The position numbers and the translations under genes are program-made. 64,000 nt of DNA, from the NCBI GenBank assembly GCA_902790465.1, contig CADASF010000005.1, positions 70,039-134,038 on the forward strand. Direction: 5' to 3'. Source of the DNA: an uncultured bacterium (GTDB taxonomy: Bacteria > Vulcanimicrobiota > CADAWZ01). Positions 1-47,047 of the stretch are shown here, in pieces. The stretch's first letter is position 1; every line of letters begins with the position of its first letter. The notes under the pieces were generated by a model. It saw only the letters and a list, made by a program, of their open reading frames with translations. It had not been told where the DNA came from and did not search any database.

Positions 1-320
1 ATAAAAAAAGCAACACTACAGGTGGATGTGCTGAATTTCAGGTGGTAAATGAGATATTATTACATAATGAAAAATTTTATAGTGATAGTAAAGAAAATAA
101 TATCGATAATATCAGATTAACTTTTGCAGTTAGATTAAAACCTCAAGAAAAACTTATGTTAAAATTAATGAGAACAGGATTATTAGAAAGTACAGGATTC
201 GATGTCGAAAAAAAATGGTTTGCAATGCTTAATTATACGGCAACTGAGCATTTACCTTACTGTGATAATTGTAAATTTATGTTTGAAGGAAAGCCTACAC
301 TAAAAGAAAGTTTTATTTAA
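1..320 (+). CDS. Deaminase-fold protein (toxin-like), 5' end truncated by window edge (frame open from nt 3)
   Basis: Translation contains GGCAEFQVVNEILL ... PYCDNCKFMF. This is the same CAE / PYCxxC zinc-ligand motif pair as the four 'Deam' genes at 26-36 kb. Stop codon at 318-320. Confidence 0.6.
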   Translation, partial: KKSNTTGGCAEFQVVNEILLHNEKFYSDSKENNIDNIRLTFAVRLKPQEKLMLKLMRTGLLESTGFDVEKKWFAMLNYTATEHLPYCDNCKFMFEGKPTLKESFI

Positions 321-342
321 AATAAAAGGAGAATTTTATAAG

Positions 343-846
343 ATGAGAATATCAGAACATGATATTTATTGTTGTGAAAATTGGTGGCATGCTGTTGACA
401 AAAATGGCTATATTTTTTGTTGTATAACTTCTGGAACCCCTAATATTCCAGAATTTGCATGTTTAGATGATGATAAAAATAATTTTCTAAATAAATTTTT
501 TATATTCGATTTTGATAAAGAAAAAAATTTGGAAAATTTTGATTCAATTCCTGATGAAGTATTTAAAAAAATAATACTTGATACTTTTATAGAAGATGAT
601 AATTTTATACTTGCTCTAAAAGGTATTACTTCTTTTGATACAATAGTTAAATATCTTAACCCAAAAAGAAGAGCTGAATTTGATAAATATCCATATTGGT
701 ATAAAAAAGTGACACAACCAATTGAATTATTGCATTTCGATCAACTTCCTGAAGATATTCAAAAAATAATGGATTCCCGTAGAATGAATGATGTTGATGT
801 AACTAAAACTGATTATTTCTTTGTTCCTGCTAATCCCAATTACTAA
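343..846 (+). CDS. Cognate partner (putative immunity) protein of the deaminase-fold family
   Basis: Carries the WHAVDKNGYIFCCITSG..PEF and YPYWYKK...LHFDQLPEDIQKIMDSRRM motifs shared with 25486-26187, 28040-28516, 30557-31261 and 34929-35414. RBS AAAGGAG lies 22 nt after the upstream stop. Confidence 0.6.
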   Translation: MRISEHDIYCCENWWHAVDKNGYIFCCITSGTPNIPEFACLDDDKNNFLNKFFIFDFDKEKNLENFDSIPDEVFKKIILDTFIEDDNFILALKGITSFDTIVKYLNPKRRAEFDKYPYWYKKVTQPIELLHFDQLPEDIQKIMDSRRMNDVDVTKTDYFFVPANPNY

Positions 847-867
847 TTGTGAAATCATAGCATAACA

Positions 868-922
868 AAAAACAAATAGCTTGTCTGAACGACTATTCAG
901 GCAAGCTATTTTGTTTTTTGTT
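868..922. terminator. Bidirectional rho-independent terminator (about 24-bp near-perfect stem) between the convergent partner gene and fusA
   Basis: acaaaaaacaaatagcttgtctgaa / ttcaggcaagctattttgttttttgt inverted repeat, flanked by T runs. Confidence 0.6.
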
Positions 923-936
923 ACCACGCTAACAGG

Positions 937-3006
937 CTATTTCTTTTCATTAGCCATCTTCACAACTTCTTCAGCCATTGATTCTGGAAGTCTTTCATAA
1001 TCCAAGAACTCCATTGAGAAATTGGCTCTTCCGCTACTCAAACTTCTTAATGTTGTTGCATATCCAAACATCTCTTTTAAAGGTACAGTTCCATTAATTT
1101 TTTGAGAACCTTTTCTGAATCTTCTCATATTTGAAACTTTTCCTCTTCTTCTTGTGAGATCTCCAATAATATCGCCTAAATATGAGTCAGGTGAGTTGAT
1201 TTCTATCTTCATTATTGGTTCAAGAAGAACAGGAGATGCATGCTTAAATGCGTCTTTAAATGCCATTGAACCACAAGTTCTGAATGCCATTTCTGAAGAA
1301 TCGACAGGGTGATAAGAACCATCGAGAAGTGTAACTTTGACATCAACTACAGGATATTTTGCTATTGTTCCTTCTTCGAGTGCGTCAATGATACCCTTTT
1401 CAACAGCAGGAATATATTCTCTTGGAATATCTCCACCTTTGACAACTTCGTTAAATTCAAATCCTTTGCCTGGATTTGGCTCAATTCTGATTATGCAGTG
1501 AGCATAATGACCTTTACCGCCAGTCTGTTTAGCATATTTTGTATTTGAATTTCCTTCTGTTGTGATTGTCTCTCTGTAAGAGATTGAAGGCTCGCCTGCT
1601 TGAACAGGTACTTTAAATTCGGTTCTGATTCTATCAATTATTATTTCAAGATGAAGTTCTCCCATTCCAGAGATAATGGCTTCCTCTGTCTCTTCGTCAA
1701 AATGATAAGAGAATGAAGGGTCTTCAAGATGAAGTTTATTTAGAGCATTTCCAAGTTTATCTCTTTCCTGTCTTGAATCAACTATTGCTTTTACACTTAT
1801 AACTGCAGGTGGTACTGTTATATTTTCAAGAATAATTGGAGCATTTTGATCGCATAGAGTGTCGCCTGTTGTTGTTGATTTCATACCTATGAGAGCAACA
1901 ATATCGCCAGCTTGTGCTTCCTCTATTTCTTCTCTGTCTTTTGCAAAAATTCTCAAAATTCTGCCAATTCTCTCTCTTTTTTTCTTTGTTGAATTCCAAA
2001 CCATGTCCCCTGTCTTAATTTTACCAGAGTAAATTCTTATAAATGTCTGTTGACCTACAAATGGATCATGAATGATTTTAAATGCAAGAGCTGAGAATGG
2101 AGCAGATGGAACAGGTTGTCTTGTAAGTGATTTTTCTTTGTCATCAGGACTGTATCCAAGAACTTTACCAGCTTCTGTAGGAGCAGGTAAGTAATCAACT
2201 ATTGCATCGAGAAGAGGTTGTATACCCATATTTTTGTAGGCAGCTCCACAAAATACAGGAGTGAACAGTGCTTTATGAACACAATCAGCAGTTACTTTTC
2301 TTATTAAATCTGAAGAAATTTCTGAGTCTTTTCCTTCGAGATATTGTTCCATTATCTCATCATTGAATTCTGATAACTTTTCGAGCATTATGTTTCTGTA
2401 TTTTTTTGCACTTTCGAGTAGTTCCTCAGGAATATCTTTTACTCCATTGTTTCCCTCTTCATAAGAGACTAAAAACATGTCGATTAAATCGACTATTCCC
2501 AAGAAATCTCCATCTTTATACCAAGGAATTTGATATCTTACAGGATTTGCTCCCAACATCTCATCCATCATATCAATAGTTTTATTAAAATCAGCTCCTT
2601 CACGGTCCATTTTGTTGATAAAGGCGATGTGAGGAGTTCCAAATTTTTGTGCTTGATTCCATACTGTCTCTGACTGTGGCTGAACACCGCCGACTGCACA
2701 GAAAACTGCAACAACTCCGTCTAGAACTCTTAGAGATCTTTCGACTTCGAGCATGAAATCGACATGGCCAGGAGTGTCGATTAAATTTAATCTGTGTTCT
2801 CGCCAATTACAGCATATAGAAGCAGAGGCAATAGTAATTCCTCTTTCTTGTTCCTGTTTCATGAAGTCCATTGTTGCTTCTCCATTGTGGACTTCTCCTA
2901 ATTTTCTCAAAAAACCAGTATAGAATAAAATTCTTTCTGATACTGTTGTTTTTCCAGCATCTATGTGGGCTATTATTCCAAAATTTCTTACTTTACTTAA
3001 TGACAT
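937..3006 (-). CDS. fusA: Translation elongation factor G
   Basis: [17 protein letters not shown] and NKMDR GTPase motifs. Full EF-G domains II-V (689 aa). Confidence 0.95.
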   Translation of the reverse strand: MSLSKVRNFGIIAHIDAGKTTVSERILFYTGFLRKLGEVHNGEATMDFMKQEQERGITIASASICCNWREHRLNLIDTPGHVDFMLEVERSLRVLDGVVAVFCAVGGVQPQSETVWNQAQKFGTPHIAFINKMDREGADFNKTIDMMDEMLGANPVRYQIPWYKDGDFLGIVDLIDMFLVSYEEGNNGVKDIPEELLESAKKYRNIMLEKLSEFNDEIMEQYLEGKDSEISSDLIRKVTADCVHKALFTPVFCGAAYKNMGIQPLLDAIVDYLPAPTEAGKVLGYSPDDKEKSLTRQPVPSAPFSALAFKIIHDPFVGQQTFIRIYSGKIKTGDMVWNSTKKKRERIGRILRIFAKDREEIEEAQAGDIVALIGMKSTTTGDTLCDQNAPIILENITVPPAVISVKAIVDSRQERDKLGNALNKLHLEDPSFSYHFDEETEEAIISGMGELHLEIIIDRIRTEFKVPVQAGEPSISYRETITTEGNSNTKYAKQTGGKGHYAHCIIRIEPNPGKGFEFNEVVKGGDIPREYIPAVEKGIIDALEEGTIAKYPVVDVKVTLLDGSYHPVDSSEMAFRTCGSMAFKDAFKHASPVLLEPIMKIEINSPDSYLGDIIGDLTRRRGKVSNMRRFRKGSQKINGTVPLKEMFGYATTLRSLSSGRANFSMEFLDYERLPESMAEEVVKMANEKK

Positions 3007-3396
3007 ATTTATTCCTTATATATATTATCTCTTCTCTTATATTTACTTTAATTTTGAATTATGCCATTTTTCACAAAATATGTCAATACTTTTTTCTTGT
3101 GAAAATATTTTTATTTTTGTAACATTTTGTTAATTGAATTATTTAAATAAGTGTGTTATATTATAAATGTCATATTGACATGTTTTTTTATATAATTACA
3201 GGTGATTTTGCTGGATTATTATAAAAAATTAGAGAAAGGAGAAGTTGCTCAAAAAATATATTTTAAGATTGTAGATATTATTTATCTACTATGTAGCTGT
3301 AGAGATATTTAAGAGTCTATAATTTGATAGTGAAGAGTATTTCTGATTATCAATGAATTATATTTGATTGTTTTTTGAGTGGCAGTTATATAGATT

Positions 3397-3756
3397 ATGT
3401 TAGGAATGAATATGGGATTTGTACCAGGCTTTATGCCTCCACCACCTCCACCAATGGGAATGCCTGTTGGATTTGGTGGAATGAGACCTCTTGGAATGCC
3501 AATGATTGGCAGACCATTTGTCATGGGTTGTGGTGGTCTTGCAGGCGGTCTTCTCGGTGCTAATTTAGGTGGAATGACAGGAACCATGGTTGGCGGAGGA
3601 ATCGGAAGCCAAATCGGTGGAATGCTCGGACATAGTATCGGTGGATTTAGTGGTGCTGCTCTCGGTTCAGCTTTAGGTGCATTTACAGGCGGAATGCTTG
3701 GCGGTGCAGTTGGAAGTAATGTCGGTTGGCATGTAGGCTCAGGAATGATTTTCTAA
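3397..3756 (+). CDS. Small Gly/Met/Pro-rich glycine-zipper protein
   Basis: Repeated GxxxG/GxxxGxxxG runs and an N-terminal PPPPPPMGMP stretch. Locally high GC in an AT-rich genome. No clear SD sequence, and an antisense Pro-rich ORF also exists. Confidence 0.4.
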   Translation: MLGMNMGFVPGFMPPPPPPMGMPVGFGGMRPLGMPMIGRPFVMGCGGLAGGLLGANLGGMTGTMVGGGIGSQIGGMLGHSIGGFSGAALGSALGAFTGGMLGGAVGSNVGWHVGSGMIF

Positions 3757-3900
3757 ATTAAGCCTTTTATAATGAGTTTTGAATGGCTGTCATAACTCTT
3801 AGCTATGACAGCTCATTTATTTTTATTATTTTCTTTGTTCTTGACATTCTTGTTATATTTTGATAATATTAAGAAGTTTTTTTTTGGGAGGATAAACTCA

Positions 3901-5169
3901 ATGACTCAAGATCCACTTTTTGAATTGACTCGTTCGCCTCAACTCAATGTTCTTATTAATAGAACAAAAGAATTTTATGAAAATACTATAACAGATGCCG
4001 AGTTTAAGGAAAGTATAAAAACTTTAAATTCATTTAGAAGAGAATTTAGATCATTTTTGAGAGAGCAGATAAAGTTTAATGCCATGACTTCTACAATGAA
4101 GCAACAGACAGAAATTATTGAACAGTCTCTTGAGAAAATAAGAGAAGGTCTTGAAGAGATGTATTCTTATTTCAATGATAGGAAGCAGGAACACATAGAT
4201 TCAGGACTTACAAAATGCAAATCTGCTTTTGAAAAATTACATGACTCTATTGAATCAATACAAAAAGAGGAAAAAGATACCCAAAAAACTTATTCTAAAG
4301 CTCCTCTTCAGAATGAATTGATGAGAATTGGGTATGCTTTAATTGATGGCAAAGTATCTCCTGATGCTTTTAAAATCAAACTCGATTCTTTGAAAAATTC
4401 ACTTAGAATGTATTATGGTTATTTTGATAAAATAGTTCCTCAGCCTTCAGAAACAGAATTTTTCAAAGAAAATGGTTCTATTATAAAAAGTTGTGTCAGA
4501 GATTATATAAAAGCCCTTGAAGAAGTCGGTATATTTTTTAAAGATTTGAATACCGAACATATAAAAGTTGGGCTACAAAAATCAAATGAAGCTGCTGAAA
4601 AATTGATGGATTTTCAAAATCGCTTAAATGAGCTAAAATCTGTCAAAAATTGTTTTAGATGTGGCACAAAAAATTTGGCTTCTGCTAAAATTTGTTCATC
4701 CTGTGGAGCAACTCTTCCTGTTATTGGTGAGGAAGAAGGCGGAGAAAACATAGATGTTAGAGTTGATGAAGATAATAACATAAATAATACAAATCATGTT
4801 CAGACAGAGCTTACAAAAAAAGTGTCTGATCTCGTTGCAGATTTTAAAAGTAGAAAAATATCTTCATCAGAAGCAAAGAAAAATTTAAATCAAATAATAG
4901 ATTCAGTTGTACAAACTAAAAAAGATAAAGATAAATTTAAACTTCCAAGTGATTTAAATGAAGATAATGAATATACATCAATATTTAACAAAATGGAAAA
5001 TTTGATGATTTCTGGATTAAATGAAATGGAAGATGGTTTGAGAAAAATTGAATCTTGTTTTGAAATTGAAGATGATTCTCAAATTGATTTTGCTCTTGAA
5101 CAATTCTTTTTTGGGGCAGATAATCTCTCAAAAGTTGTTGTCATGTCAGAGAGTTTAAAAGATAGTTAA
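3901..5169 (+). CDS. Hypothetical coiled-coil protein with internal zinc-ribbon (CxxC-x12-CxxC)
   Basis: CFRCGTKNLASAKICSSCG. The start was moved to ATG 3901 (RBS GGGAGG). The ORF-track N-terminus 3805-3900 reads through a TTGACA/-10 promoter. Confidence 0.5.
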   Translation: MTQDPLFELTRSPQLNVLINRTKEFYENTITDAEFKESIKTLNSFRREFRSFLREQIKFNAMTSTMKQQTEIIEQSLEKIREGLEEMYSYFNDRKQEHIDSGLTKCKSAFEKLHDSIESIQKEEKDTQKTYSKAPLQNELMRIGYALIDGKVSPDAFKIKLDSLKNSLRMYYGYFDKIVPQPSETEFFKENGSIIKSCVRDYIKALEEVGIFFKDLNTEHIKVGLQKSNEAAEKLMDFQNRLNELKSVKNCFRCGTKNLASAKICSSCGATLPVIGEEEGGENIDVRVDEDNNINNTNHVQTELTKKVSDLVADFKSRKISSSEAKKNLNQIIDSVVQTKKDKDKFKLPSDLNEDNEYTSIFNKMENLMISGLNEMEDGLRKIESCFEIEDDSQIDFALEQFFFGADNLSKVVVMSESLKDS

Positions 5170-5937
5170 ATGAAACCAGCTGAAATATTTGAGAAAATAT
5201 TCAAAGAAAAATTAATTTTTAATTCAGATAAATTACAATTTATATCCTCAGTTATGTCTTGTTTTAGAGATATTCCTTATGAAAATATTTCTAAAATAAA
5301 TCTATTAAAACCGACATTGAGAACTCCTGAAATTGTTATGCATGATTTTGAAAAGTTTGGGTTAGGGGGGACTTGTTTTTCCTTAACTTGGCTTTTAAAA
5401 ATCGTGCTAAATTATTTTGGGGAAGAATTTGCAGTATATTCTGCAGATAGAACTTATGGAGAAAATACACATTGTGCAGGAGTTTGGACTGATTCAAATG
5501 GTGCTAAATATCTCCTCGATGTTGGTTATCTTATTTTTACCCCTGTTTTAATTCCTCAAAATGAAAAAGAATCGGAATTTTCTTTTGGTTCTTTTGATTT
5601 TAAAATTGTCAATTCAAATTCAAGACTTCAAGTGTATTCCAAGACAAAAAATGCTGATTATAAATTTCGATATGTCATAAAAATGGATAAGATTTCAGAT
5701 TCAGATTTTATGGATATATGGATAAAAAGTTTTGAATTTGCTATGATGAATAATATCATTGTCAATAAATATTTAGGTTCTGATTTGGTATATATAAAAG
5801 ATTGTAGAATAAATTTTACAGGAAAAGCAAAAAAAGTTTCGCAAGATGAAGTAATCAATTTTATTTCAGAATTGGGAATTTCATCAACTGAAACACAAAA
5901 GGCTTTTGAAAAGATAAAAAAAGATGGAAAAAGTTAA
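5170..5937 (+). CDS. Arylamine N-acetyltransferase-like (Cys-His-Asp fold) protein
   Basis: GGTCFSLTWLL ... HCAGVWTDSNGAKYLLDVGY resembles the NAT GGYCFE...HLALLV..YLVDVGFG motifs. Confidence 0.5.
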   Translation: MKPAEIFEKIFKEKLIFNSDKLQFISSVMSCFRDIPYENISKINLLKPTLRTPEIVMHDFEKFGLGGTCFSLTWLLKIVLNYFGEEFAVYSADRTYGENTHCAGVWTDSNGAKYLLDVGYLIFTPVLIPQNEKESEFSFGSFDFKIVNSNSRLQVYSKTKNADYKFRYVIKMDKISDSDFMDIWIKSFEFAMMNNIIVNKYLGSDLVYIKDCRINFTGKAKKVSQDEVINFISELGISSTETQKAFEKIKKDGKS

Positions 5938-6436
5938 ATTATTTTACGCAATTTTATTTAATGATACAGATATATTGGAAAAGGCAAAAGAACTCCTCAT
6001 TAAAAAATGGGGAGCTATTGATTTTGTCAGTAAGCCATTTCCTTTTGATGGCACTTCCTATTATGAAGAAGAAATGGGAAAAGACCTTTCGAGAATTTTT
6101 GTCTCTTTTGATGAATTACAGGCTCCTTCTATTTTGCCTGAATCAAAAAATGTAGCTACTGAGATAGAAAATGTTTTTGCTATTGATGGAAAAAGAAAAA
6201 TAAATCTCGATCCAGGTTATCTCGATTATGCAAAACTTGTGCTTGTAAGTGGAAAATATGCCCCTCATAAACTTTGGATAGCAGATGGTATGTATGCAGA
6301 TTTTACACTTATCTATTCAAAGGGAAAATTTCAAAAGTTCAACTGGACTTTTCCTGATTTTGCTAAGGGTATATATGATTCGTCTCTTTTAAAAATAAGG
6401 GAATTGTATAAAAAGAAAGTCAATTCAAGTCGGTAA
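5924..6436 (+). CDS. Conserved hypothetical protein (DUF4416-like)
   Basis: Overlaps the upstream gene by 14 nt (operon). Identity assigned from the sequence pattern alone. Confidence 0.4.
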   Translation: MEKVKLFYAILFNDTDILEKAKELLIKKWGAIDFVSKPFPFDGTSYYEEEMGKDLSRIFVSFDELQAPSILPESKNVATEIENVFAIDGKRKINLDPGYLDYAKLVLVSGKYAPHKLWIADGMYADFTLIYSKGKFQKFNWTFPDFAKGIYDSSLLKIRELYKKKVNSSR

Positions 6437-6536
6437 ATAGAGCGTGTTGGTAAATTGTTTTCGCAACTTTTTGGGTGCAAAGAGGAGAAGCGGAAATCAA
6501 TTTCCGTAACCAAGATAGCCTCTATTTATAGGTGAT

Positions 6537-6567
6537 GTCATTGCGAGGGAGCTGTGCGACCGTGGCA
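6537..6567. repeat. MITE-like repeat, partial copy A (core + right part), forward
   Basis: gtcattgcgagggagctgtgcgaccgtggca is identical to 19482-19512. Its reverse complement lies at 8022-8055. Confidence 0.7.
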
Positions 6568-6642
6568 ATCTCAAAGGCTTAATTTAACAAAAATTATTTT
6601 TTATGAGAGAAGGACGGCTGAAGAGCCAGAAGAGGAGAGAAA

Positions 6643-8016
6643 ATGGCAAAGAAAAAAGTTGAAGAACTCACAATAGAAGAAAAATTACAAAATGCACTTA
6701 TACCAGAAAAAGACCAGCCTTATAAAATCCCTCAAAATTGGTGTTGGGTAAAAATTATGAATATAGGTGAAGTAGTTACAGGAAGCACACCAAATACAAA
6801 AGAAAAATCATATTTTGGAGGAAATGTTCCCTTTATAAAACCTGCAGACATTGATCAAGGAAGATATATTATATTTTCTAAAGATACATTAAGTGAAGAA
6901 GGAAAAAATGTATCTCGTCCTGTACCTAAAGGGTCAACTTGTATATGTTGTATAGGTACAATAGGAAAATGTGGATACTTAATGGTTGATGCTGTAACCA
7001 ATCAACAAATAAACACAATTATTCCTTATAAGATAGTAAATAGCTTATTTGTTTATTATTATTGTATTAGTGATTATTTTCAATGTACCATAATTAATAA
7101 CTCTTATGCAACAACTATATTTATAATAAAAAAATCTAAAATGTCAAGTTTACCCTTTCCTCTTCCTCCATTAGCAGAACAGGAGAGGATAGCAAATAAA
7201 CTTGATAATTATATTTCTAAACTCGATGAGGCAAAAGAAAAATTAGAAAAAGTTGTTGATACTTATGAATTTAGAAAATCTGTAATTTTACACAAAGCAT
7301 TTACTGGTCAACTGACTAAAAATTGGCGAAAAGAAAATAAATTTGAATTAGATGATGATATAAAAAAGAAAGCAATAACTAAAGATTCAATGCTACCTGA
7401 TGAATATCTATATGAAATTCCTGAAAATTGGCGTTGGGTTAGATTAGGTAATATAGGAGAAATAGTTACAGGAAGTACACCCAATACAAAAGATAAATCT
7501 TATTTTGGTGGAAATGTTCCTTTTATAAAACCAGCAGAACTTGATCAAGAAGAAAATATAATATCATCTACAGAAACATTGACAGAAAAAGGCAAGAATA
7601 TTTCTCGTCCTGTTAGAAAAGGTTCAACTTGCATTTGTTGTATTGGTACAATAGGAAAATGTGGATACTTAAGAGTAGAAGCAGTCACTAATCAGCAGAT
7701 TAATACAGTAATTCCTTATGATTTTCTTGATGATTTATTTGTATATTATTATTGTTGTAGTAAGTTTTTTAAGAAAGTTATAAGAACATCAAAATTACCT
7801 TTTCCTCTTCCACCCATTGAAGAACAGAAAGAGATTGTAAAAATTCTTGATTCTTTTTTGACAAAAGAAAAACAGGTTAAAGAAATAGCAGAAAAAGAGA
7901 TAGAGAGAGTTGAGGAGCTAAGGGAAAATCTTTTAACTCGTGCATTTGGTGGAATCCTTGGAACAAATAATCCAAATGAAGAAAATTCAATCGAATTATT
8001 AAAAACAGTGCTGTAA
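6643..8016 (+). CDS. hsdS: Type I restriction-modification specificity subunit HsdS (orphan)
   Basis: Two TRDs plus central and C-terminal conserved repeats (LPFPLPPLAEQERIA / LPFPLPPIEEQKEIV). No hsdM or hsdR in the window. Confidence 0.85.
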   Translation: MAKKKVEELTIEEKLQNALIPEKDQPYKIPQNWCWVKIMNIGEVVTGSTPNTKEKSYFGGNVPFIKPADIDQGRYIIFSKDTLSEEGKNVSRPVPKGSTCICCIGTIGKCGYLMVDAVTNQQINTIIPYKIVNSLFVYYYCISDYFQCTIINNSYATTIFIIKKSKMSSLPFPLPPLAEQERIANKLDNYISKLDEAKEKLEKVVDTYEFRKSVILHKAFTGQLTKNWRKENKFELDDDIKKKAITKDSMLPDEYLYEIPENWRWVRLGNIGEIVTGSTPNTKDKSYFGGNVPFIKPAELDQEENIISSTETLTEKGKNISRPVRKGSTCICCIGTIGKCGYLRVEAVTNQQINTVIPYDFLDDLFVYYYCCSKFFKKVIRTSKLPFPLPPIEEQKEIVKILDSFLTKEKQVKEIAEKEIERVEELRENLLTRAFGGILGTNNPNEENSIELLKTVL

Positions 8017-8021
8017 CTAGA

Positions 8022-8092
8022 AGCTCCCTCGCAATGACAAAGTGGCAGTGTACAGCTATATATTGGATAGTTTATAGCAAATTTTTATTTAC
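8022..8092. repeat. MITE-like repeat, partial copy B (left part + core), inverted relative to copy A. Abuts the hsdS stop codon.
   Basis: The reverse complement matches 19422-19498 at about 95%. Confidence 0.7.
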
Positions 8093-8268
8093 TTATTTTT
8101 TAAAATCAAATAGCAAAACGAGTTAAATTTAAATTTATAAATACAATTTCTAAGATTTGTACCGCACAAAAGTTGCTATTGGAAAGTTTAACATGCTCTA
8201 TTATTGTTCAATTTGACTTGACGACTTAATAATAAAATTTAAAGAATTTGGAGAAGAATAAAAAAAAA

Positions 8269-9660
8269 ATGAATAGACATAAAATGCCTGAACAGGACCC
8301 AAATATAAGAAAGAATAATTTTGAGGAAGTTGCTCTTGGATATGATGAAGAGACAGCTGTGGAAGAAGCAAAAAGATGTCTTCAGTGTAAAAATCCACAG
8401 TGTAGAAAAGGCTGTCCTGTCCATGTAAACATTCCTGAATTTATAAAGAATATAAAAGAAAGAAAATTTGATACAGCAATTTCTGTTATAAAAGAATCAA
8501 ATTCACTTCCTGCCGTATGTGGAAGAGTTTGTCCACAGGAAAATCAATGTGAAAAACATTGTGTATTGGGAATTAAAAATGAGCCTGTCGCAATAGGAAA
8601 TTTAGAGAGATTTGTGGCAGATAAAGACCTTGAAAAGGCAGAAGAACCACAAAAAATAGAATTTAAAGAAAATGCTCCAAAAATTGCAATAATTGGCTCT
8701 GGTCCAGCAGGTCTATCCGCAAGTGGAGACCTTGTAAAATTGGGTTATAAAGTTACAATATTCGAGGCATTACACAAAGCAGGTGGAGTTTTGTCTTATG
8801 GAATCCCTGAATTTAGACTTCCAAAAGATAAGATCGTTAAAAAAGAGATAGAAAATTTGGAAAAATTGGGTGTTGAAATAAAATTAAACTCAATAGCTGG
8901 AAAGTTATTTTCTATAGATGAACTTTTTGAAGAAGGTTATAGTGCTGTTTTTGTCGGAACTGGTGCTGGTCTTCCACATTTCATGAATATAAAAGGTGAA
9001 AATTTTAATGGTGTTTATTCTGCCAACGAATTTTTGACAAGATGTAATTTGATGAAAGCATATAAATTTCCTGAATATGCGACACCTATTTCTGTTGGAA
9101 AAAATGTTGCTGTAGTTGGTGGTGGAAATGTTGCTATGGATTCAGCAAGAAGTGCAAAAAGACTCGGAGCTGAAAAAGTTTTTATCATATACAGAAGAAG
9201 TGAAGAAGAACTTCCTGCAAGAAAAGAAGAAGTCAAACATGCCAAAGAAGAAGGCATAGAATTTTTGTTGTTGTCAAATCCTGTTGAAATAATAGGATAT
9301 GATAATGGTTGGGTAAAACAAATAAAATGTATAAAAATGGAATTGGGAGAACCTGATTCTTCAGGAAGAAGAAGACCTATAGAAATCAAAGATTCTGAAT
9401 TTACAGTTGATGTTGATTCAATTATAATGGCAATAGGACAAGGGCCAAATCCTGTTTTATCATCTTCATCTCCAAATTTACAATTAAATAAAAGAGGCAA
9501 TATTATTGTTAATGAGGAAACTCTTGAAACATCTATTGAAAATGTCTTTGCAGGTGGCGATATTGTAACAGGTGCCGCAACAGTTATACTTGCAATGGGG
9601 GCAGGTAAAAAAGCAGCAAAAGCAATAGATGAAAAATTGAAAAATCAAAGGGAAAAGTAA
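8269..9660 (+). CDS. gltD: NADPH-dependent glutamate synthase small-subunit-like FAD/NAD(P) oxidoreductase (GltD/SudA family)
   Basis: N-terminal 2x[4Fe-4S] Cys clusters CLQCKNPQC.../CGRVCPQENQCEKHC. GSGPAG and GGGNVAMD dinucleotide motifs. Confidence 0.8.
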   Translation: MNRHKMPEQDPNIRKNNFEEVALGYDEETAVEEAKRCLQCKNPQCRKGCPVHVNIPEFIKNIKERKFDTAISVIKESNSLPAVCGRVCPQENQCEKHCVLGIKNEPVAIGNLERFVADKDLEKAEEPQKIEFKENAPKIAIIGSGPAGLSASGDLVKLGYKVTIFEALHKAGGVLSYGIPEFRLPKDKIVKKEIENLEKLGVEIKLNSIAGKLFSIDELFEEGYSAVFVGTGAGLPHFMNIKGENFNGVYSANEFLTRCNLMKAYKFPEYATPISVGKNVAVVGGGNVAMDSARSAKRLGAEKVFIIYRRSEEELPARKEEVKHAKEEGIEFLLLSNPVEIIGYDNGWVKQIKCIKMELGEPDSSGRRRPIEIKDSEFTVDVDSIIMAIGQGPNPVLSSSSPNLQLNKRGNIIVNEETLETSIENVFAGGDIVTGAATVILAMGAGKKAAKAIDEKLKNQREK

Positions 9661-9714
9661 GAAGAAAAGTAAATATAAAAATATAATTGTATTTATTTTT
9701 GGAGAAAAAGTTAT

Positions 9715-10278
9715 ATGACAATTAATGAAGAACTTTTGCCTAAAGAACGAAAAAAAAATGGCTTTGATATTGTAACTGTTTTATTTTTATTTATGTTTGT
9801 ATTTACATTCATATGTTGTTATTTATATACAATGAGACTTGAAGTTGAAGTAGATCACCAAAAAAAAGAAATTGCTGAATTACAAGCGAAAATTGAGCAA
9901 GAAAAAAAAGGATTTGAAGATATAAAAAAATTAAGAAAGAATATTATTGAATTAAAAAATGATATAGTTTTTTATAATATTGGTGGTCAAGAGATTTTTG
10001 GTGAATTATCTTCTCTTATTCCAAATAATATGAAGTTAAATGATATTTCTATAACTTTTTCTAAGGATCACTCTAAGCCTTCGACATTAACACTTTCTGG
10101 AGTCGTTATTGAAAAACAAGGAACTAAACCTGACGAATCTGTTTCTAATTTTGTAAAAAACATAAAAAAATCAAAATATTTTAAAAATACCACAATTACG
10201 AATAATCCGACTAAATCTAAAACTACTAAAGATAAATATTATTGGAATATAGAAATTAAATACAATGATGAAGTTTAA
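9715..10278 (+). CDS. Hypothetical bitopic membrane protein (TM + coiled coil; PilN-like topology)
   Basis: Single N-terminal TM, heptad-repeat region and a C-terminal beta-rich domain. Confidence 0.35.
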   Translation: MTINEELLPKERKKNGFDIVTVLFLFMFVFTFICCYLYTMRLEVEVDHQKKEIAELQAKIEQEKKGFEDIKKLRKNIIELKNDIVFYNIGGQEIFGELSSLIPNNMKLNDISITFSKDHSKPSTLTLSGVVIEKQGTKPDESVSNFVKNIKKSKYFKNTTITNNPTKSKTTKDKYYWNIEIKYNDEV

Positions 10279-10293
10279 AGGAGTTGACAAAAT

Positions 10294-10617
10294 ATGGGAC
10301 TTATTCCAAATATAATGAAAATATTTATTGGATTAATTGTAATTGTTTTTATTGTTGCTATATTTTGGGCTACTTCTTGGCGAACACAAATGGAAGAAAT
10401 TAAATATTGCAAAAAGATGATTGTAGAAGAAAACTATAGGTTAGATCAAATTCGCAGAGATAAAGAAGAAATACCTAAATTGATTGCAATGATAAGGCAT
10501 TTGCAGGCAGAGTTTCAAACAGTTAAAGTACAGCTTATAGCAGATTTTAACGATGCAGAAAAGCCACTTGTTAAAAAACAGAAACAAATTATTGAACAAC
10601 AAAAGAAACAAAAATAA
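10294..10617 (+). CDS. Small membrane protein with coiled coil (PilO/FtsB-like topology)
   Basis: TM helix followed by a charged coiled coil. Confidence 0.35.
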   Translation: MGLIPNIMKIFIGLIVIVFIVAIFWATSWRTQMEEIKYCKKMIVEENYRLDQIRRDKEEIPKLIAMIRHLQAEFQTVKVQLIADFNDAEKPLVKKQKQIIEQQKKQK

Positions 10618-10635
10618 CAATAAAGGTTTAATAAT

Positions 10636-11454
10636 ATGGATGAAATTTTAAAAATATTCGGTGGAGGCGGTGGAGAGGAAGATAATTCCAACTCCAATTT
10701 TGGGCAATCCTCACAGCAACAGGGAGGAAGAAGTCGTGAACAATCTCTTCCAGGAGGTGGAGGAGTTTGGGAATTTGAAATGCCTGATGGTGGGATTCAA
10801 GAATGGCAACAGCAACAGAGACAGCAGGAACAGAGAAGAAGCAATGTATATAATCTTCCTGCTCCTGAAGCAGACCGTTCTGGAATGCCTATGCAACAAC
10901 CAATGCAAGACATGGATATGAACCAAAATAATTTTCCGCCTGAATATGAGCTTGAACCTGGAATTGAAAATGCCTCTTCTTTTGCTGTACCAGGTGGTGT
11001 ACCTTCTTCTGAAATACAAGTAACAGAAAGTACAATAGAAGGATACATGAAGACCATGGGCATTATGTCTGAAAAAGTGGATACATGCCTTTGGACGATG
11101 AAATATGAAGGTGGAGCTAAAGATTACGATGTTTATATCGAATTGACAGCTACTTCAGTTAGGATAGTCCTTCCAATATTGGAAAGAGTTAGAGATGTAT
11201 GCAGAGAGAAAGTTTGGTATCATCTTTTGAGATTGAATTATGTTACAGATGATATTGTTATTGGATTAAATAAAAGAGATGAAGTTTTTATGACTTCTGT
11301 TATACCTATAAAATATATATCTTATGATGATTTTAAAAAATCATTGACATATATTTTTACAATGGTTGATGAATTATATCCTGAATTATTATTCTTATCA
11401 CAAAAGACAACTGCCGTTTCAAGTTTTCTCCAAGAAGGAGGAGGAGCAAAATAA
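10636..11454 (+). CDS. Hypothetical protein; low-complexity Gly/Gln N-terminus and a YbjN-like C-terminal domain
   Basis: GGGGEED..QQQ region, then a globular C-terminus resembling the YbjN / T3SS-chaperone-like fold. Weak call. Confidence 0.3.
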   Translation: MDEILKIFGGGGGEEDNSNSNFGQSSQQQGGRSREQSLPGGGGVWEFEMPDGGIQEWQQQQRQQEQRRSNVYNLPAPEADRSGMPMQQPMQDMDMNQNNFPPEYELEPGIENASSFAVPGGVPSSEIQVTESTIEGYMKTMGIMSEKVDTCLWTMKYEGGAKDYDVYIELTATSVRIVLPILERVRDVCREKVWYHLLRLNYVTDDIVIGLNKRDEVFMTSVIPIKYISYDDFKKSLTYIFTMVDELYPELLFLSQKTTAVSSFLQEGGGAK

Positions 11455-11456
11455 GC

Positions 11457-12854
11457 GTGCAGGTTAAAAAAAATGTTATTTTGATTATGTTGGGCTGTTT
11501 TATTATAAGATTTATCTTTATTTTTGCAAAAGATATTTCTGTTGATGAATCAGCTCTTCTTTTTATTTCTAAATATCCACTTTTTGAAATAGTAAATGTA
11601 ATGAGATCTTGTGGTGAAGTTCACCCTCCATTATATTTCTTTTTTTGCCATTTTTGGCAGATGTTGGGAAATAGTGAATTTATTTTAAGGCTGTCGTCTG
11701 TTATATTTTCTTCACTTTCAGTTCCCATTATTTGGCTTTTGACTTTTGAAATATCTAAATCTGAAAAAATATCATATTTAGCAACAATATTATTTTGCAT
11801 TTCCTCTTTTGATATAGAATTTGCATGTGAATTTCGCATGTATTCCTGTTTAACTTTTTTATTTTTGTGTGCCATTTATACTTGTTTAAAATATTTAGAT
11901 ACAGAAGAAAATAAATATTTGATTGCAAACATAATAGTAGGATTAATTGGGGTATCTGTTCATTTTCTTTTTATATTTTGCATATTGGCAGAATTGATAA
12001 TATATTTATTAAACAAGAAAATAAAAGATTGTCTATATCAATTAATTCCAATAAGTCTATTTTGTTATTATTTTTTCACAACAAAAAGTCAGGATATGAC
12101 TATAAGAGAAACACCTGATATGTGGCATTTGGTGATGTTATTTTCAAAAATGTTAGCAGGTGAGGGGTTTTTGCCTACTTATGGAATTGCTGATCCTTGG
12201 GATGAACCTATTTTAATATTCGGGGGAATAGGATTATTGTTTTTTATTCCTTGTTTTTTGTTATATTTGGATAAATCAAAATATTTATTGATTACATTGT
12301 CCTCTTTTTTTATACCTGTATTTCTTTTGTCTTGTTTTACAAATATAAAGATATTTGAGTATAAATATTTTGTTGTTATGTTTCCTTTTTTCATAATAAC
12401 TATAAGTATTCTGATAACCAAGTTAACTCAGAGTATGAACTTTACTCTCCTTTTTTTGTTGATATTTATACCAGCAAATATTTTTTCTTCAATATCCCTA
12501 TTTTATGATTCTAATTTTAAAGGTCCAGATTGGAGAGCAACAGCTCAATTTATAGAAAATAATTGTAAAGAAGATGAATTGGCAGTTGTATTTCCTTCAA
12601 TGATGAGTTTGCCTGTAGATTATTATTTGAAGAGAAAAAAACAATTACTTCCTGCAAATAAAATAGACAAAAATTTTGTTGAAATTGCAAGTGGGTTTAA
12701 AAATATTTGGTTTTGTTCTCTAACAAATCATCCTTATGTATTAAAAGAAAAGCCAAATGAAATACTTCAATATATTTATGTGGAAAAGAAAAAAATAGAA
12801 ATTGAATCTCATCAAAGTAAAGATTCAATTTCTATAGTTAAGTATAGTATATAG
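11457..12854 (+). CDS. Polytopic membrane glycosyltransferase (GT39/GT83 ArnT/PMT-like)
   Basis: About 11 predicted TM helices. GTG start. Similar to dolichyl-phosphate-mannose / 4-amino-arabinose transferase family architecture. Confidence 0.45.
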   Translation: MQVKKNVILIMLGCFIIRFIFIFAKDISVDESALLFISKYPLFEIVNVMRSCGEVHPPLYFFFCHFWQMLGNSEFILRLSSVIFSSLSVPIIWLLTFEISKSEKISYLATILFCISSFDIEFACEFRMYSCLTFLFLCAIYTCLKYLDTEENKYLIANIIVGLIGVSVHFLFIFCILAELIIYLLNKKIKDCLYQLIPISLFCYYFFTTKSQDMTIRETPDMWHLVMLFSKMLAGEGFLPTYGIADPWDEPILIFGGIGLLFFIPCFLLYLDKSKYLLITLSSFFIPVFLLSCFTNIKIFEYKYFVVMFPFFIITISILITKLTQSMNFTLLFLLIFIPANIFSSISLFYDSNFKGPDWRATAQFIENNCKEDELAVVFPSMMSLPVDYYLKRKKQLLPANKIDKNFVEIASGFKNIWFCSLTNHPYVLKEKPNEILQYIYVEKKKIEIESHQSKDSISIVKYSI

Positions 12855-12857
12855 CTT

Positions 12858-13787
12858 TTATTGAAATAATATTGATGATAAGTATCTTTCACCTGTATCA
12901 GGTATGATAACGACGACATTTAAATTTTTATCTTCTTGTCGCTCTATTGCCTTTAAACCTGCACAAAAGGCAGCACCACCAGAAAAACCACAGAAAATAC
13001 CGTATTTTTGAGCTAAAATTCTTGCATGTGAAATTGATTCATCGTTTGTTATTTTTTCAACTCTGTCAATCATTGACAAATCGAGTGTTTTGGGGATAAA
13101 TCCAGCACCTATTCCTTGTATTTTGTGTGAACCTGATTTTATTTCTTCGTTTGCCAATTTTTGACTTATCACAGGAGAAGTTGCAGGCTCAACAGCTATT
13201 GAACAAATCTTTTTTTGTCTGTCAATTTTTATGTATTGTGATACTCCACTAAATGTGCCACCTGTACCGACACCTGCTACAAAAACATCAATATTTCCAT
13301 CGAGATCATCCCAAATCTCAGGACCTGTAGTCATTCTGTGTATTTTTGCATTTACAGGATTTTCAAATTGGTTAGGAATGAAATATTTATCGCTTTCGCT
13401 TGCAAGTTTTTTTGCTTCATTGACAGAACCTGTCATTCCTTTAGCTCCTTCTGTCAATATTACCTTAGCTCCAAATGCTTTTATTAAGTTTCTTCTCTCA
13501 ATGCTCATTGTTTCAGGCATTGTCAAAGCTACTTCAAATCCGAGTGAAGCACCTATCTGAGCAAGTGCTATACCAGTGTTTCCACTTGTAGGCTCTAAAA
13601 TGGTCATGCCTTCTTTTAATTTACCTGTTTTTAATGCCTCGTCAATCATTGCATTTGCGAGACGGCTTTTTACAGAACCTGAAACATTTCTGCCTTCAAG
13701 TTTTAAAAATAGATTTGAATTTTTGTGTTTTATTCTTACAAGAGGAGTATGTCCGATAGTGAATTTTTCTAAATCATAATATCTCAT
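12858..13787 (-). CDS. cysK: Cysteine synthase A (O-acetylserine sulfhydrylase)
   Basis: PLP-lysine motif SVKSRLA and the SGNTG Gly-rich loop. Confidence 0.9.
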   Translation of the reverse strand: MRYYDLEKFTIGHTPLVRIKHKNSNLFLKLEGRNVSGSVKSRLANAMIDEALKTGKLKEGMTILEPTSGNTGIALAQIGASLGFEVALTMPETMSIERRNLIKAFGAKVILTEGAKGMTGSVNEAKKLASESDKYFIPNQFENPVNAKIHRMTTGPEIWDDLDGNIDVFVAGVGTGGTFSGVSQYIKIDRQKKICSIAVEPATSPVISQKLANEEIKSGSHKIQGIGAGFIPKTLDLSMIDRVEKITNDESISHARILAQKYGIFCGFSGGAAFCAGLKAIERQEDKNLNVVVIIPDTGERYLSSILFQ

Positions 13788-14013
13788 GTTTTGTCTGTCC
13801 TTTTTTTGTTATTATGTTTTATTTATTTTCTTTGACAATTTCTATTTTTCCTTTTATAAATTTGATGAAATTTGAGCAAGAAATAATATTTAGATATAAG
13901 CTATTTTGGGGGTTTTGCAATGCAATAAAGGATTTTATTTTATTTCCTTCGAATTTTGTTTTTTATAAAAAATATACATATATTTTTTATAAAAAGATAA
14001 AATTGGAGGTTTT

Positions 14014-14859
14014 ATGATTAAGAAAAATATTGGATATTTGATAGCTTGTTTATTTTTTGTGGCTATCATTGTTTCAGCTTGTGGTGGTGATGGTAAAACT
14101 TTACCACCAGATAATTCATCTCTTTATTATTTGTTGGCTCAACAACAAAATGAACCAGTTCCTGAACCTATTCCGACTCCTTCTCCTACAGTATCTCCTG
14201 ATCCTGAGCCAGAACCAGAGCCTACGACTGAGCCTGAACCGACTCCAGTAAATCCATTTGCAGAAGCTCAGGAAGGTGATGAAGTTGAGTTTGGAAATTA
14301 TCCTCAGACTGCAGATGGTGAGGTACAGCCAATAAAATGGCGTGTCTTATCAAGAGATGATGATAAAAAGGAGTTATTGGCACTTTCCGTTAATGTTCTT
14401 GATTCAGTTCGTTTTGATGGTGATTCAACTGATTGGGGAAATAGTGAGATTCGTAGTTGGTTAAATGGTGATGATTTTTATAATAAAGTTTTAGATGATG
14501 GAACAGCTGTATTTACAGAGGCAGAGAAGAGTTTTATAAAGCCAGTAGTTCTTACAGATGTAGATATGACTGAGTCAGATAATGTGTTTTTATTGAGTGG
14601 TGATTGGAACCGTAATGGTGAGGCAAATGCTTATTTTGCAAATGATTCTGCAAGAATGTGTAGAGCAACAGAATATGCAGTAGCAAATGGTGTTTGGGTA
14701 GCAACTTCAGGATTTTATGCAGGTAATTGTTTATGGTGGTTGCGTACTGCTAATAATTCTAAGTATGTTTATTATGTTCTCAGTGCTGGGAACATCGGCT
14801 GCAACGATCCAAACTTTAAAAACCCTGGTGTTAGGCCCGCTTTGTGGATAAATCTTTAA
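14014..14859 (+). CDS. Lipoprotein with Pro/Glu/Thr-rich linker
   Basis: Signal peptide plus lipobox (VSAC). PEPEPT low-complexity spacer and a globular C-terminal domain. Confidence 0.5.
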   Translation: MIKKNIGYLIACLFFVAIIVSACGGDGKTLPPDNSSLYYLLAQQQNEPVPEPIPTPSPTVSPDPEPEPEPTTEPEPTPVNPFAEAQEGDEVEFGNYPQTADGEVQPIKWRVLSRDDDKKELLALSVNVLDSVRFDGDSTDWGNSEIRSWLNGDDFYNKVLDDGTAVFTEAEKSFIKPVVLTDVDMTESDNVFLLSGDWNRNGEANAYFANDSARMCRATEYAVANGVWVATSGFYAGNCLWWLRTANNSKYVYYVLSAGNIGCNDPNFKNPGVRPALWINL

Positions 14860-15292
14860 TCTTTTAATCTTTAATTTTATCTTAAATCGTATCCATAAAT
14901 CTTGCGCCTTTAGGCGCTAATCTAAAGAAATACGAAGTTATGTTGAAATAATTATTTGGGAATGAATTTAAAAAGAGTTTAAAAATGTTTTTGTCCTGGC
15001 CTAAGGCTGGGTCGCTTTTTTTTTATAATTGACATTTTTTGTACTTGGTTTTATATAAAATAAAGAAAGGATTCAGATGTTGCGAAAGCAGATAACAAAC
15101 TATTTAATTTTTTCACAGACCCTTTGGTTAGAGTTGTGCTAAATAAAAACTCTGTTCTTCAGGTGGAATATTTAACATTTGATTAAATAATTTGGTTTTA
15201 TCATTTGCTTTCAAGACTTCTGAAGGAAAAAGGATTATTTATGGATAAAAAATATTTTCAAATAATTTTTATTGAGGAATTTTGTTAAATAG

Positions 15293-19312: not shown

Positions 19313-19336
19313 TTTTATTCTCTAAACTATAACAAT

Positions 19337-19536
19337 AAAAAGGGGCTGTGAAAAAAATATTTTTTTCACAGCCTTTTTTTTATATAATCTTCGTAAATTA
19401 ACTCGTTGTGCTAAATGCAAAAAAACAAGTAAATAAAAGTTGCTATAAACTATCCAATATATGCCTGTATACTGCCACTTTGTCATTGCGAGGGAGCTGT
19501 GCGACCGTGGCATTTACTTTTTTCACAGCCCCTTTT
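19337..19536. repeat. MITE-like element, full-length copy C (about 200 bp). Its terminal inverted repeats (AAAGGGGCTGTGAAAAAA) double as the terminator hairpin of the GAF gene.
   Basis: Left hairpin at 19344-19373. Internal core is identical to copies A and B. The right end, ttttttcacagcccc, is the reverse complement of the left end. Confidence 0.65.
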
Positions 19537-19545
19537 ATATATTTA

Positions 19546-47035: not shown

Positions 47036-47047
47036 AGGTTATTAAAA

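Follow-up and report, generated by a model that had tools for sequence, protein, structure and literature searches.

A gene for a type I restriction specificity subunit (HsdS) that stands alone, with two closely similar target-recognition domains (TRDs) and an inverted repeat on either side, raises the question of whether it is a mobile or invertible specificity cassette or owes its appearance to something else. We examined such a gene within a 64 kb stretch of DNA, referred to here as the window. The host is an uncultured bacterium from the rumen that belongs to the class Xenobia of the phylum Eremiobacterota; its DnaK is 77% identical to that of Ca. Eremiobacteraeota, and a related hsdS is present in a ‘Candidatus Xenobia’ rumen genome.

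The open reading frame (ORF) at positions 6643–8016 (+ strand) encodes 457 amino acids and is an ordinary, stand-alone HsdS. It comprises an N-terminal region, TRD1, a central conserved region, TRD2 and a C-terminal conserved region. Pfam identified two Methylase_S (PF01420) stretches (E 1.7e-43), with conserved helical regions between and after them, PADLOC returned a Specificity_I match (E 1.5e-85), and the best solved relative is the Methanocaldococcus jannaschii S subunit 1YF2 (E 1.4e-41). The AlphaFold model (mean pLDDT 90.4) shows two globular TRDs and long helices at residues 177–220 and 392–435. All four lines of evidence agree with the normal HsdS architecture described in the initial annotation of this DNA. 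An exact look-up found no identical protein on record. The gene is preceded by a conserved leader (6591–6642, + strand) that carries the ribosome-binding site gaggagagaaaATG and is common to paralogous hsdS loci: positions 3375–3563 of contig L025 match 6568–6757 of the window at 83%, and the leader of L001 reads ttttatgagagaaggacg...agaggag, as in the window. Scans for promoters and terminators around hsdS performed no better than on shuffled sequence.

Both TRDs belong to one type, which we designate T. TRD1 (6721–7170, + strand; residues 27–176) is intact and identical at 150 of 150 residues to that of the intact allele P0121, and its closest relative anywhere is the TRD2 of its own family. 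TRD2 (7411–7815, + strand; residues 257–391) has lost 45 nt, in frame, after codon R381. Within the window the two TRDs are identical at 98 of 135 aligned residues (73%), and within P0121 at 107 of 150 without gaps (71%), in keeping with the 70–75% first estimated. The entire HsdS halves are 55% identical to each other. Such twinning is uncommon, with strongly similar halves in only two others among the 120 best homologues (48% and 42%). The resemblance had been attributed to a very recent internal duplication, with assembly duplication as a further possible source. The DNA of the two TRDs is only 80% identical (6721–7020 versus 7411–7710), and three independent assemblies (the window, L008 and L012) share this twin-TRD allele; we therefore rejected a recent tandem duplication, and an assembly duplication is likewise not supported.

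The deletion leaves one of the two TRDs incomplete. The 15 residues missing from TRD2 in the window, ERSCATTIYIINKTK, are present in TRD1 and in all 11 aligned relatives; their loss had been overlooked in the initial annotation. They correspond to residues 382–396 of P0121, which in the intact model form the end of helix 374–383, two beta bridges and most of helix 394–398. The shortened TRD2 is still modeled by AlphaFold with a pLDDT of ~80–88. As the deleted and intact proteins are both modeled confidently, the models cannot decide whether the deletion inactivates TRD2.

No hsdM or hsdR accompanies the gene. Pfam searches of 30 ORFs, among them all those of 397 aa or longer, found neither in the 64 kb window, and tblastn with canonical HsdM and HsdR gave no match there at E<=1 while recovering the genes in four control loci, which bears out the earlier statement that no partner is linked. 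The possibility that partners lie just outside the window had also been raised; none is encoded within 16 kb upstream in the strain contigs. Neither gene lies beside the paralogous hsdS loci, nor is either protein encoded in ~311 kb of retrieved loci, which belong mostly to the window species; the DNA examined of that species amounts to at most ~0.3 Mb. The window hsdS thus lies outside any operon or cluster with hsdM (and hsdR) and has the form of a complete hsdS unlinked from other type I genes. We infer that each S subunit would act in trans with an HsdM, and possibly an HsdR, encoded elsewhere.

Solitary hsdS genes occupy at least five chromosomal sites in this species: after a DUF4416 gene (locus 1), between nfnA and nfnB (locus 2), beside radical-SAM/RtcB genes, among LRR_5/DUF6273 genes and beside a ParE/YafQ toxin gene. 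The N-terminal, central and C-terminal conserved regions are near-identical in all copies, and TRD2 is the same in most, while TRD1 and sometimes TRD2 vary among strains and loci. At locus 1, where the flanks are 98.8–100% identical, at least four TRD combinations are found (T/T, B/T, C/T and C/D). Type B is found as TRD1 both at locus 1 (L009) and at locus 5 (L026), and type T occupies both TRD positions. Each TRD is enclosed by an x repeat, Y(K/E)IP(Q/E)NW.WV, and a y repeat, LPFPLPP(L/I).EQ, in the order x-TRD1-y-x-TRD2-y. This pattern is the signature of domain movement, in which TRDs are swapped by homologous recombination at the conserved repeats flanking each of them. The central conserved region (7171–7410, + strand), nearly invariant over all alleles and paralogues in the alignment and its identity profile, is a probable substrate for such exchange. 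Beyond this family, a scan of genome contigs with the family alignment yielded two related rumen genomes and otherwise distant relatives only, and a scan of metagenome contigs with short patterns returned mostly unrelated HsdS genes. One contig, L031, carries a canonical hsdR-hsdM-hsdS operon with the same TRD type.

Other rumen metagenome contigs show that the window gene is itself a composite of two of these loci. Positions 1–7785 are 100.000% identical to L012, which carries hsdS locus 1, and positions 7781–15660 align with L028, which carries locus 2, with 0 mismatches. The 5' part of the gene and the repeat upstream of it (copy A) belong to locus 1, and the 3' end, the downstream repeat (copy B) and nfnB to locus 2. 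The parental junction, placed at 7785–7786 (+ strand) by comparing L012 with L028, is exactly where the 45 nt are deleted; the deletion is unique to the window among the copies compared, and both L012 and L028 retain the 45 nt. In four contigs from four samples (L008, L009, L010 and L011), what follows locus 1 is an AAA-ATPase_like/PDDEXK_9 gene and in no case nfnB. The ends of L012 and L013 coincide at a single base, the last before the sequences of the two loci diverge, which fits an unresolved repeat. The initial annotation had missed the join of the two loci. Taken as a whole, we consider it probable, with fair assurance, that the window gene belongs to a multi-copy, TRD-shuffling family of solitary hsdS genes and is a composite copy.

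Locus 2 is an insertion site in its own right. In L029 the site is empty, with nfnA directly upstream of nfnB, and in L025 and L028 it is filled, the order being nfnA-hsdS-repeat B in L025 and hsdS-repeat B-nfnB in L028; NfnB is identical between strains. In the window, the rest of the insert that accompanies hsdS at this site spans 8131–8229 (+ strand), and the empty-site contig aligns with the window from 8230 on, which places the right boundary at 8229/8230. The downstream neighbor of locus 2, an nfnB/gltD-like oxidoreductase gene with Pfam Fer4_20 and Pyr_redox_2 domains, follows at 8269–9660 (+ strand). In the window it lacks its usual upstream partner nfnA.

The composite origin of the gene also changes the meaning of the repeats around it, which had been read as inverted copies of one MITE-like element bracketing the gene. 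An 18-nt perfect inverted repeat, TGTCATTGCGAGGGAGCT, is present at 6536–6553 and 8022–8039, outside the ORF, and the 17-mer core occurs three times in the window against 0.02 expected. Copy A (6519–6590, + strand) contains cctctatttatagg, the core TGTCATTGCGAGGGAGCT at 6536–6553, gtgcgaccgtggcaatctc and aggcttaattta. It had been described as part of the 19.4-kb element but represents, at full length, the unit of a shorter sub-family (cctctatttagagg, core, gtgcgaccgtggcaatctc and aggcttaattta) with two further occurrences in L002, and it is found in identical form upstream of locus 1 in 10 of 10 strain contigs (L008–L017, DUF4416 locus). Copy B (8022–8130, – strand) is a truncated version of a longer element and belongs to locus 2; it consists of the core at 8022–8039 and ~90 nt shared with the 19.4-kb copy. 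It begins 5 nt past the stop codon instead of abutting it, and reaches ~8130 instead of ending at 8095. Copy B is identical in L028 and complete, with a 110-nt variable insert, in L025; at locus 1, none of the four contigs that extend past hsdS (L008–L011) has it. Copy C (19393–19512, + strand; core 19482–19498) is a shortened copy of the long element of copy B. The segment 19337–19536 had been taken for the full-length version, but other strains carry 74 additional nt at this site, and a 44-nt tandem duplication is seen in one strain and a 31-nt deletion in another. The 18-nt inverted repeat is real, but copies A and B come from different loci, so that it is the join that creates the bracket. 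Whether that join is a chimera or a recombinant, the inverted repeats do not bound a mobile cassette.

Each copy of a MITE would have terminal inverted repeats and a target-site duplication; an alignment of six repeat copies contained neither shared termini nor target-site duplications. Three copies lie in the window and more in L002 and L025, and what sets strains apart is internal indels and a tandem duplication rather than sites cleanly filled in one and empty in another. Copy A has no significant fold (z = 0.04), and the near-zero folding z-scores of the repeat copies give no evidence for a structured RNA. Rfam has no family for the repeats; it identified four tRNAs in the window. Literature searches with the repeat core returned only unrelated primer matches.

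We next weigh how locus 1 and locus 2 came to be joined. The join is, on balance, rather likely to be an assembly chimera, in which the assembler would have crossed the ~450-nt stretch common to both loci. Against this stands the deletion: graph-based assemblers cannot invent a deletion junction, so reads carrying it probably exist, and the molecule behind them would be real, whether a variant of locus 2 or a true recombinant. Had long reads gone into the source assembly, a chimera over 450 nt would also be unlikely.

A real chromosomal recombinant, produced by homologous or illegitimate recombination that fused the locus 1 and locus 2 hsdS halves, is a possibility to which we give a minor but appreciable weight. 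Depending on whether the two copies were inverted or direct, the DNA between them would have been inverted or deleted, and the product would be a hybrid hsdS whose TRD2 is 15 residues short. TRD exchange between loci clearly occurs in this family, the long identical stretches in both loci are good substrates, the deletion is in frame, and, if a de Bruijn graph assembler was used, the junction with its deletion should exist in the reads. Yet the join is present in one contig only, whereas four assemblies with 98.8–100% identical left flanks run into the AAA-ATPase gene, and L012, identical to the window across 7785 nt, has the 45 nt. A 45-nt deletion at the crossover is, moreover, not expected from homologous recombination. 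Deletion between direct copies would have cost nfnA and the SecG gene, both upstream of the locus 2 hsdS in L025, and everything else between the loci, for which contig extents suggest tens of kb. The join, besides, leaves nfnB without nfnA. We are doubtful that the join is real and that the at least five dispersed solitary hsdS genes amount to genome-wide specificity shuffling without a dedicated recombinase.

It is improbable, in our view, that the solitary hsdS genes are partnerless remnants of a lineage that lost hsdM and hsdR, with the S genes now decaying or recruited elsewhere. The lack of hsdM and hsdR in any fetched DNA of the same species would fit such a history, as would the 15 conserved residues missing from the window copy and a half-size hsdS in the related genome RUG13696 (L021), next to a methyltransferase that is not of type I and has N6_N4_Mtase and D12 domains. 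However, the DNA examined from the species totals at most ~0.3 Mb, and intact full-length ORFs are kept at five loci in many samples. Their conserved regions are near-invariant and their TRDs diversified, a pattern of selection for variable specificity and not of decay.

The cassette mobilised by, or invertible between, flanking MITE-like copies, as first proposed, is largely refuted, and we consider it very improbable. It drew on the 18-nt perfect inverted repeat on either side of the gene, on a repeat family that is real and indel-prone, and on the presence or absence of hsdS between nfnA and nfnB. Copy A, however, is fixed upstream of locus 1 whatever follows, and copy B is never found at locus 1 elsewhere; no such repeat lies adjacent to the hsdS loci in L001, L002 and L026. 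The locus 2 insert has at its left end only a 13-nt trace of the right end of the repeat, without the core, and neither target-site duplications nor terminal inverted repeats bound the insertion between nfnA and nfnB. The gene has the same orientation relative to its flanks in all contigs, so that comparison of strains revealed presence or absence of the cassette at nfnA/nfnB but no inversion. No recombinase or transposase is nearby, the only integrase-family gene in the window being at 60124–61125, 52 kb from hsdS. What survives of the proposal is that the gene is recombination-prone, as the TRD combinations at locus 1 attest; mobilisation driven by the repeats does not. Phase-variable hsdS loci that invert, among them pneumococcal ivr/SpnD39III and tvr as well as hsd of Mycoplasma pulmonis, contain several hsdS genes or fragments per locus, inverted repeats within the coding sequence and usually a dedicated recombinase. 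The family described here resembles them in that specificity is altered by recombination among hsdS copies with common conserved regions. Unlike them, the window has a single hsdS (tblastn with eight family members matched only 6643–8013), with no inverted repeats inside its coding sequence and no dedicated recombinase nearby. An invertible on/off switch was rejected on the grounds of constant orientation and the lack of a nearby recombinase, and a phage-borne or plasmid-borne cassette because the neighbors are of chromosomal type (EF-G, DUF4416, nfnB, LepA, MetRS and DnaK) and a scan of viral contigs found no relative.

Orphan hsdS genes and TRD domain movement are together an already known pattern. 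Orphan type I S subunit genes active in trans have been described in dairy lactococci (PMC12418389), and orphan hsdS is also known in staphylococci, Moraxella and Helicobacter. As in the lactococci, the genes are complete two-TRD hsdS unlinked to hsdM and hsdR, with several per genome and different specificities; the lactococcal orphans are mostly plasmid-borne with activity established by methylome, whereas the present family is chromosomal and lies among housekeeping genes. Domain movement (DoMo) within and between loci was described for hsdS of Helicobacter pylori (Furuta et al. 2011, PMC3077401). There, too, the arrangement is x-TRD1-y-x-TRD2-y, TRD types occur at either position and across loci, and exchange is inferred at the flanking repeats. 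H. pylori differs in phylum and in that its S genes belong to type I restriction-modification systems, while no hsdM or hsdR was found here; one allele here also has the same TRD type at both positions at once.

Two similar TRDs in one S subunit also have a structural counterpart. Both TRDs of S.MjaXIP (1YF2) align to type T, so the two TRDs of this S subunit resemble each other as well, although it is archaeal and only ~35% identical. Given two TRDs of one type in an M2S1 complex, a symmetric target is expected, and the twin-TRD allele would accordingly be predicted to direct methylation to a symmetric or nearly symmetric, palindromic bipartite site, as the initial annotation had suggested. 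The engineered EcoR124I-NT reportedly reads a palindromic bipartite site. It exemplifies symmetrical S subunits made from half-genes (PMC3320862) and likewise brings a single TRD type into the M2S1 complex twice; it is a homodimer of identical half-subunits, whereas here the two TRDs lie in one chain and are only 71% identical. A symmetric target is plausible but should not be assumed at this level, as 71% identity need not mean that both TRDs recognize the same half-site.

The hsdS annotation needs support from reads before it is relied on, as does the continuity of the contig at ~7.8 kb, and the repeated hsdS conserved regions are likely misjoin sites in metagenome-assembled genomes more generally. 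An uncultured rumen Eremiobacterota lineage joins those organisms in which several unlinked hsdS genes with shuffled TRDs are maintained, and in some strains an hsdS cassette sits inside the nfnAB operon; neither the Eremiobacterota family nor the nfnAB insertion changes what is known of type I systems. If the join is true, recombination between distant copies would reassort TRDs, and in the window strain it would also have parted nfnB from nfnA and made a hybrid twin-TRD S subunit.

The hsdS gene (6643-8016, plus strand) lies in a window with a G+C content of 30.4% and encodes a protein of 457 residues. Methylase_S (PF01420) is found by Pfam in two stretches of this protein (E = 1.7e-43), the PADLOC type I specificity models cover it end to end (E = 1.5e-85), and among solved structures it comes closest to 1YF2, the S subunit of M. 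jannaschii (E = 1.4e-41). The AlphaFold model contains two globular target-recognition domains (TRDs) and two long helical conserved regions, with a mean pLDDT of 90.4. The two halves share 55% overall identity. Their TRD cores are identical at 98 of 135 residues (73%) with a 15-residue gap, and at 107 of 150 (71%), ungapped, in the intact twin-TRD allele P0121; the corresponding DNA stretches (6721-7020 and 7411-7710) are 80% identical. The two TRDs of roughly 70–75% identity described in the initial annotation are thus correct. Clearly similar halves occur in just two others among the 120 best HsdS homologues. This is a bona fide solitary hsdS gene of known kind, and its twin-TRD allele, which may recognize a near-palindromic target, is uncommon but precedented.

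Homologous hsdS copies occupy different chromosomal sites, each time solitary: after DUF4416 (locus 1; contigs L008-L017 and L110-L112), between nfnA and nfnB (locus 2; L025 and L028), beside radical-SAM, RtcB and GmrSD genes (locus 3; L001), among LRR_5/DUF6273 genes (locus 4; L002-L007) and beside a ParE/YafQ toxin gene (locus 5; L026). One sample, ERZ28613018, contains loci 1, 2 and 3. In other strains, the locus 1 hsdS is followed by a gene for a 540-aa AAA-ATPase_like and PDDEXK_9 protein (L008 8164-9786), which is absent from the window, and then by one for a DUF6273 protein; DUF6273 and LRR_5 genes likewise surround the hsdS copy in L002.

Comparison with these contigs shows that the window hsdS joins locus 1 to locus 2. 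The locus 1 contig L012, which comes from a different assembly, is 100.000% identical to window 1-7785, then carries 45 nt absent from the window and stops 11 nt further on. The locus 2 contig L028 starts within hsdS and has the 45 nt as well; it is identical to window 7781-15660 with 0 mismatches. As the two contigs match the window on either side of the switch and both carry the 45 nt, the in-frame deletion in the window gene (ERSCATTIYIINKTK missing, after R381) sits exactly at the parental switch; it is seen in no other hsdS copy. In the model of the intact protein, the residues lost here make up a helix end, two beta bridges and the greater part of a short helix immediately before the last TRD2 strand. 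The shortened domain is still modelled at a pLDDT of ~80-88, so the deletion may or may not impair TRD2.

Empty and filled sites at locus 2 were compared to delimit the hsdS insert. The window holds an nfnB/gltD-like gene (8269-9660) and no nfnA. In L029, nfnA (2-691) lies 36 nt upstream of an nfnB identical to that of the window; in L025 and L028 the two genes are separated by an inserted hsdS cassette, which nfnA (2547-3389) precedes in L025. Filling the site changes the NfnA C-terminus from ...NLSKITP to ...NLSISEA. The right boundary of the insert falls at window 8229|8230 (L029 versus L025 and L028), its left end bears a short trace of the repeat only, and the same comparison reveals no target-site duplication at the boundaries.

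We consider the join to be probably an assembly chimera. It is seen in this contig alone and is contradicted by four assemblies with flanks that match those of the window exactly or almost exactly. Locus 1 leads into the AAA-ATPase_like/PDDEXK_9 gene in four contigs from four samples, never into nfnB, which in the window is stranded without its partner nfnA. Moreover, locus 1 and locus 2 have ~450 nt of identical sequence in common, and the contigs of other assemblies break at exactly the join: L012 and L013, different alleles from different samples, terminate at the same base, the last before the two loci diverge, which has the look of an unresolved repeat in the assembly graph. The uniqueness of the join and the four discordant assemblies also make a real inter-locus recombinant less likely, although a graph assembler could not invent the deletion junction, and molecules carrying the 45-nt deletion therefore probably exist. 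These could simply be locus 2 of the window strain.

The initial annotation, largely correct in its observation, had inverted MITE-like repeats bracketing hsdS. The analysis confirms the perfect 18-nt inverted repeat, and the repeat core is over-represented in the window (3 copies against 0.02 expected), but the bracket exists only because the upstream side of locus 1 and the downstream side of locus 2 are joined in this contig. Copy A (6519-6590) is a complete unit of a short repeat sub-family with two further copies in L002, and all ten strain contigs carry it unchanged upstream of locus 1. Copy B (8022-8130, minus strand) is missing from locus 1 elsewhere, identical in L028, and complete in L025 with a 110-nt variable insert; it and the copy at 19.4 kb are both copies of a longer element. 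Mobilization of the cassette by these repeats, also proposed, is not supported: copy A is fixed at locus 1, no copy lies next to the other hsdS loci, and the nfnA/nfnB site lacks a target-site duplication. The repeat copies gave no Rfam match and no significant fold. The intergenic region around the third copy (19313-19545; ~2176-2530 in L114-L119), flanked by a GAF-domain gene and a 224-aa gene, varies among strains (233, 275, 306 and 350 nt) through a 74-nt segment that the window lacks, a tandem duplication of the core unit spanning 44 nt (L116) and a 31-nt deletion (L114), and two contigs break off within it.

A Pfam scan of 30 window ORFs, among them all those of 397 aa or more, identified housekeeping and signalling genes (EF-G, DUF4416, the nfnB/gltD-like oxidoreductase, LepA, MetRS, DnaK, EF-Tu and GGDEF/GAF proteins) and no HsdM or HsdR. 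Searching the window by tblastn with HsdM and HsdR of the canonical operon in L031 gave no match at E ≤ 1; the same queries did pick up both genes in four control loci. The earlier claim of no linked hsdM or hsdR holds, and in strain contigs, too, neither occurs within 16 kb upstream of hsdS. The window contains no second hsdS fragment. An XerC/D-like tyrosine recombinase (Phage_integrase plus SAM-like N-terminal domain; 60124-61125) lies 52 kb from hsdS, with no sign of a connection. Elsewhere in the window, two Thoeris ThsA Macro-domain proteins are encoded 3 kb apart, at 29481-30509 and 33600-34844 (Pfam E = 3e-32 and 2e-28; PADLOC ThsA E = 1.7e-52 and 1.6e-48). A PEP-mutase/cytidylyltransferase and glycerophosphotransferase cluster (45728-48265) precedes two adjacent paralogues of ~860-870 aa (48271-50892 and 51062-53638), in which an N-terminal YidC/60KD_IMP insertase domain is fused to a C-terminal phosphodiesterase/sulfatase-like region.

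The source contig of the window is 242,971 nt long, and all close relatives are metagenomic. Many proteins from rumen metagenomes match the DnaK of the window at 98-100% identity, whereas its closest relatives with a name are Candidatus Eremiobacteraeota (77%) and Candidatus Xenobia (69%). A ‘Candidatus Xenobia’ rumen genome carries a related hsdS. In the related rumen genome RUG13696, a half-size hsdS (261 aa, one TRD; L021 3988-4773) lies 400 nt downstream of a gene for a 726-aa protein (L021 1397-3577) with D12-class and N6_N4 DNA methyltransferase domains, which is not HsdM. Matching ORF sizes suggest that the hsdS, metallo-beta-lactamase-fold and LRR_5 order of L021 is repeated in the Candidatus Xenobia genome L023.

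Among the closest HsdS homologues (62-76% identity), the N-terminal, central and C-terminal conserved regions are near-invariant and the TRDs differ. Locus 1 carries four TRD combinations in strains whose flanks are 98.8-100% identical: T/T (L008, L012 and the window), B/T (L009 and L013), C/T (L011) and C/D (L010, L017 and L112). This bears out the recombination-prone character initially proposed. TRD type B is present at locus 5 too. The closest match to the TRD1 of the twin allele is the TRD2 of the family itself (71%), and its identity to any other sequence does not exceed 60%. This makes it an old copy of the resident TRD that has come to occupy position 1, rather than the recent internal duplication that had been suggested. 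The swapping follows the pattern known from H. pylori as domain movement (PMC3077401). The lineage thus holds several unlinked, recombining hsdS genes. Unlinked S genes acting in trans are well documented (PMC12418389), and the canonical hsdR-hsdM-hsdS operon in L031 carries the same TRD type as the window HsdS, which may itself act in trans with an unseen HsdM.
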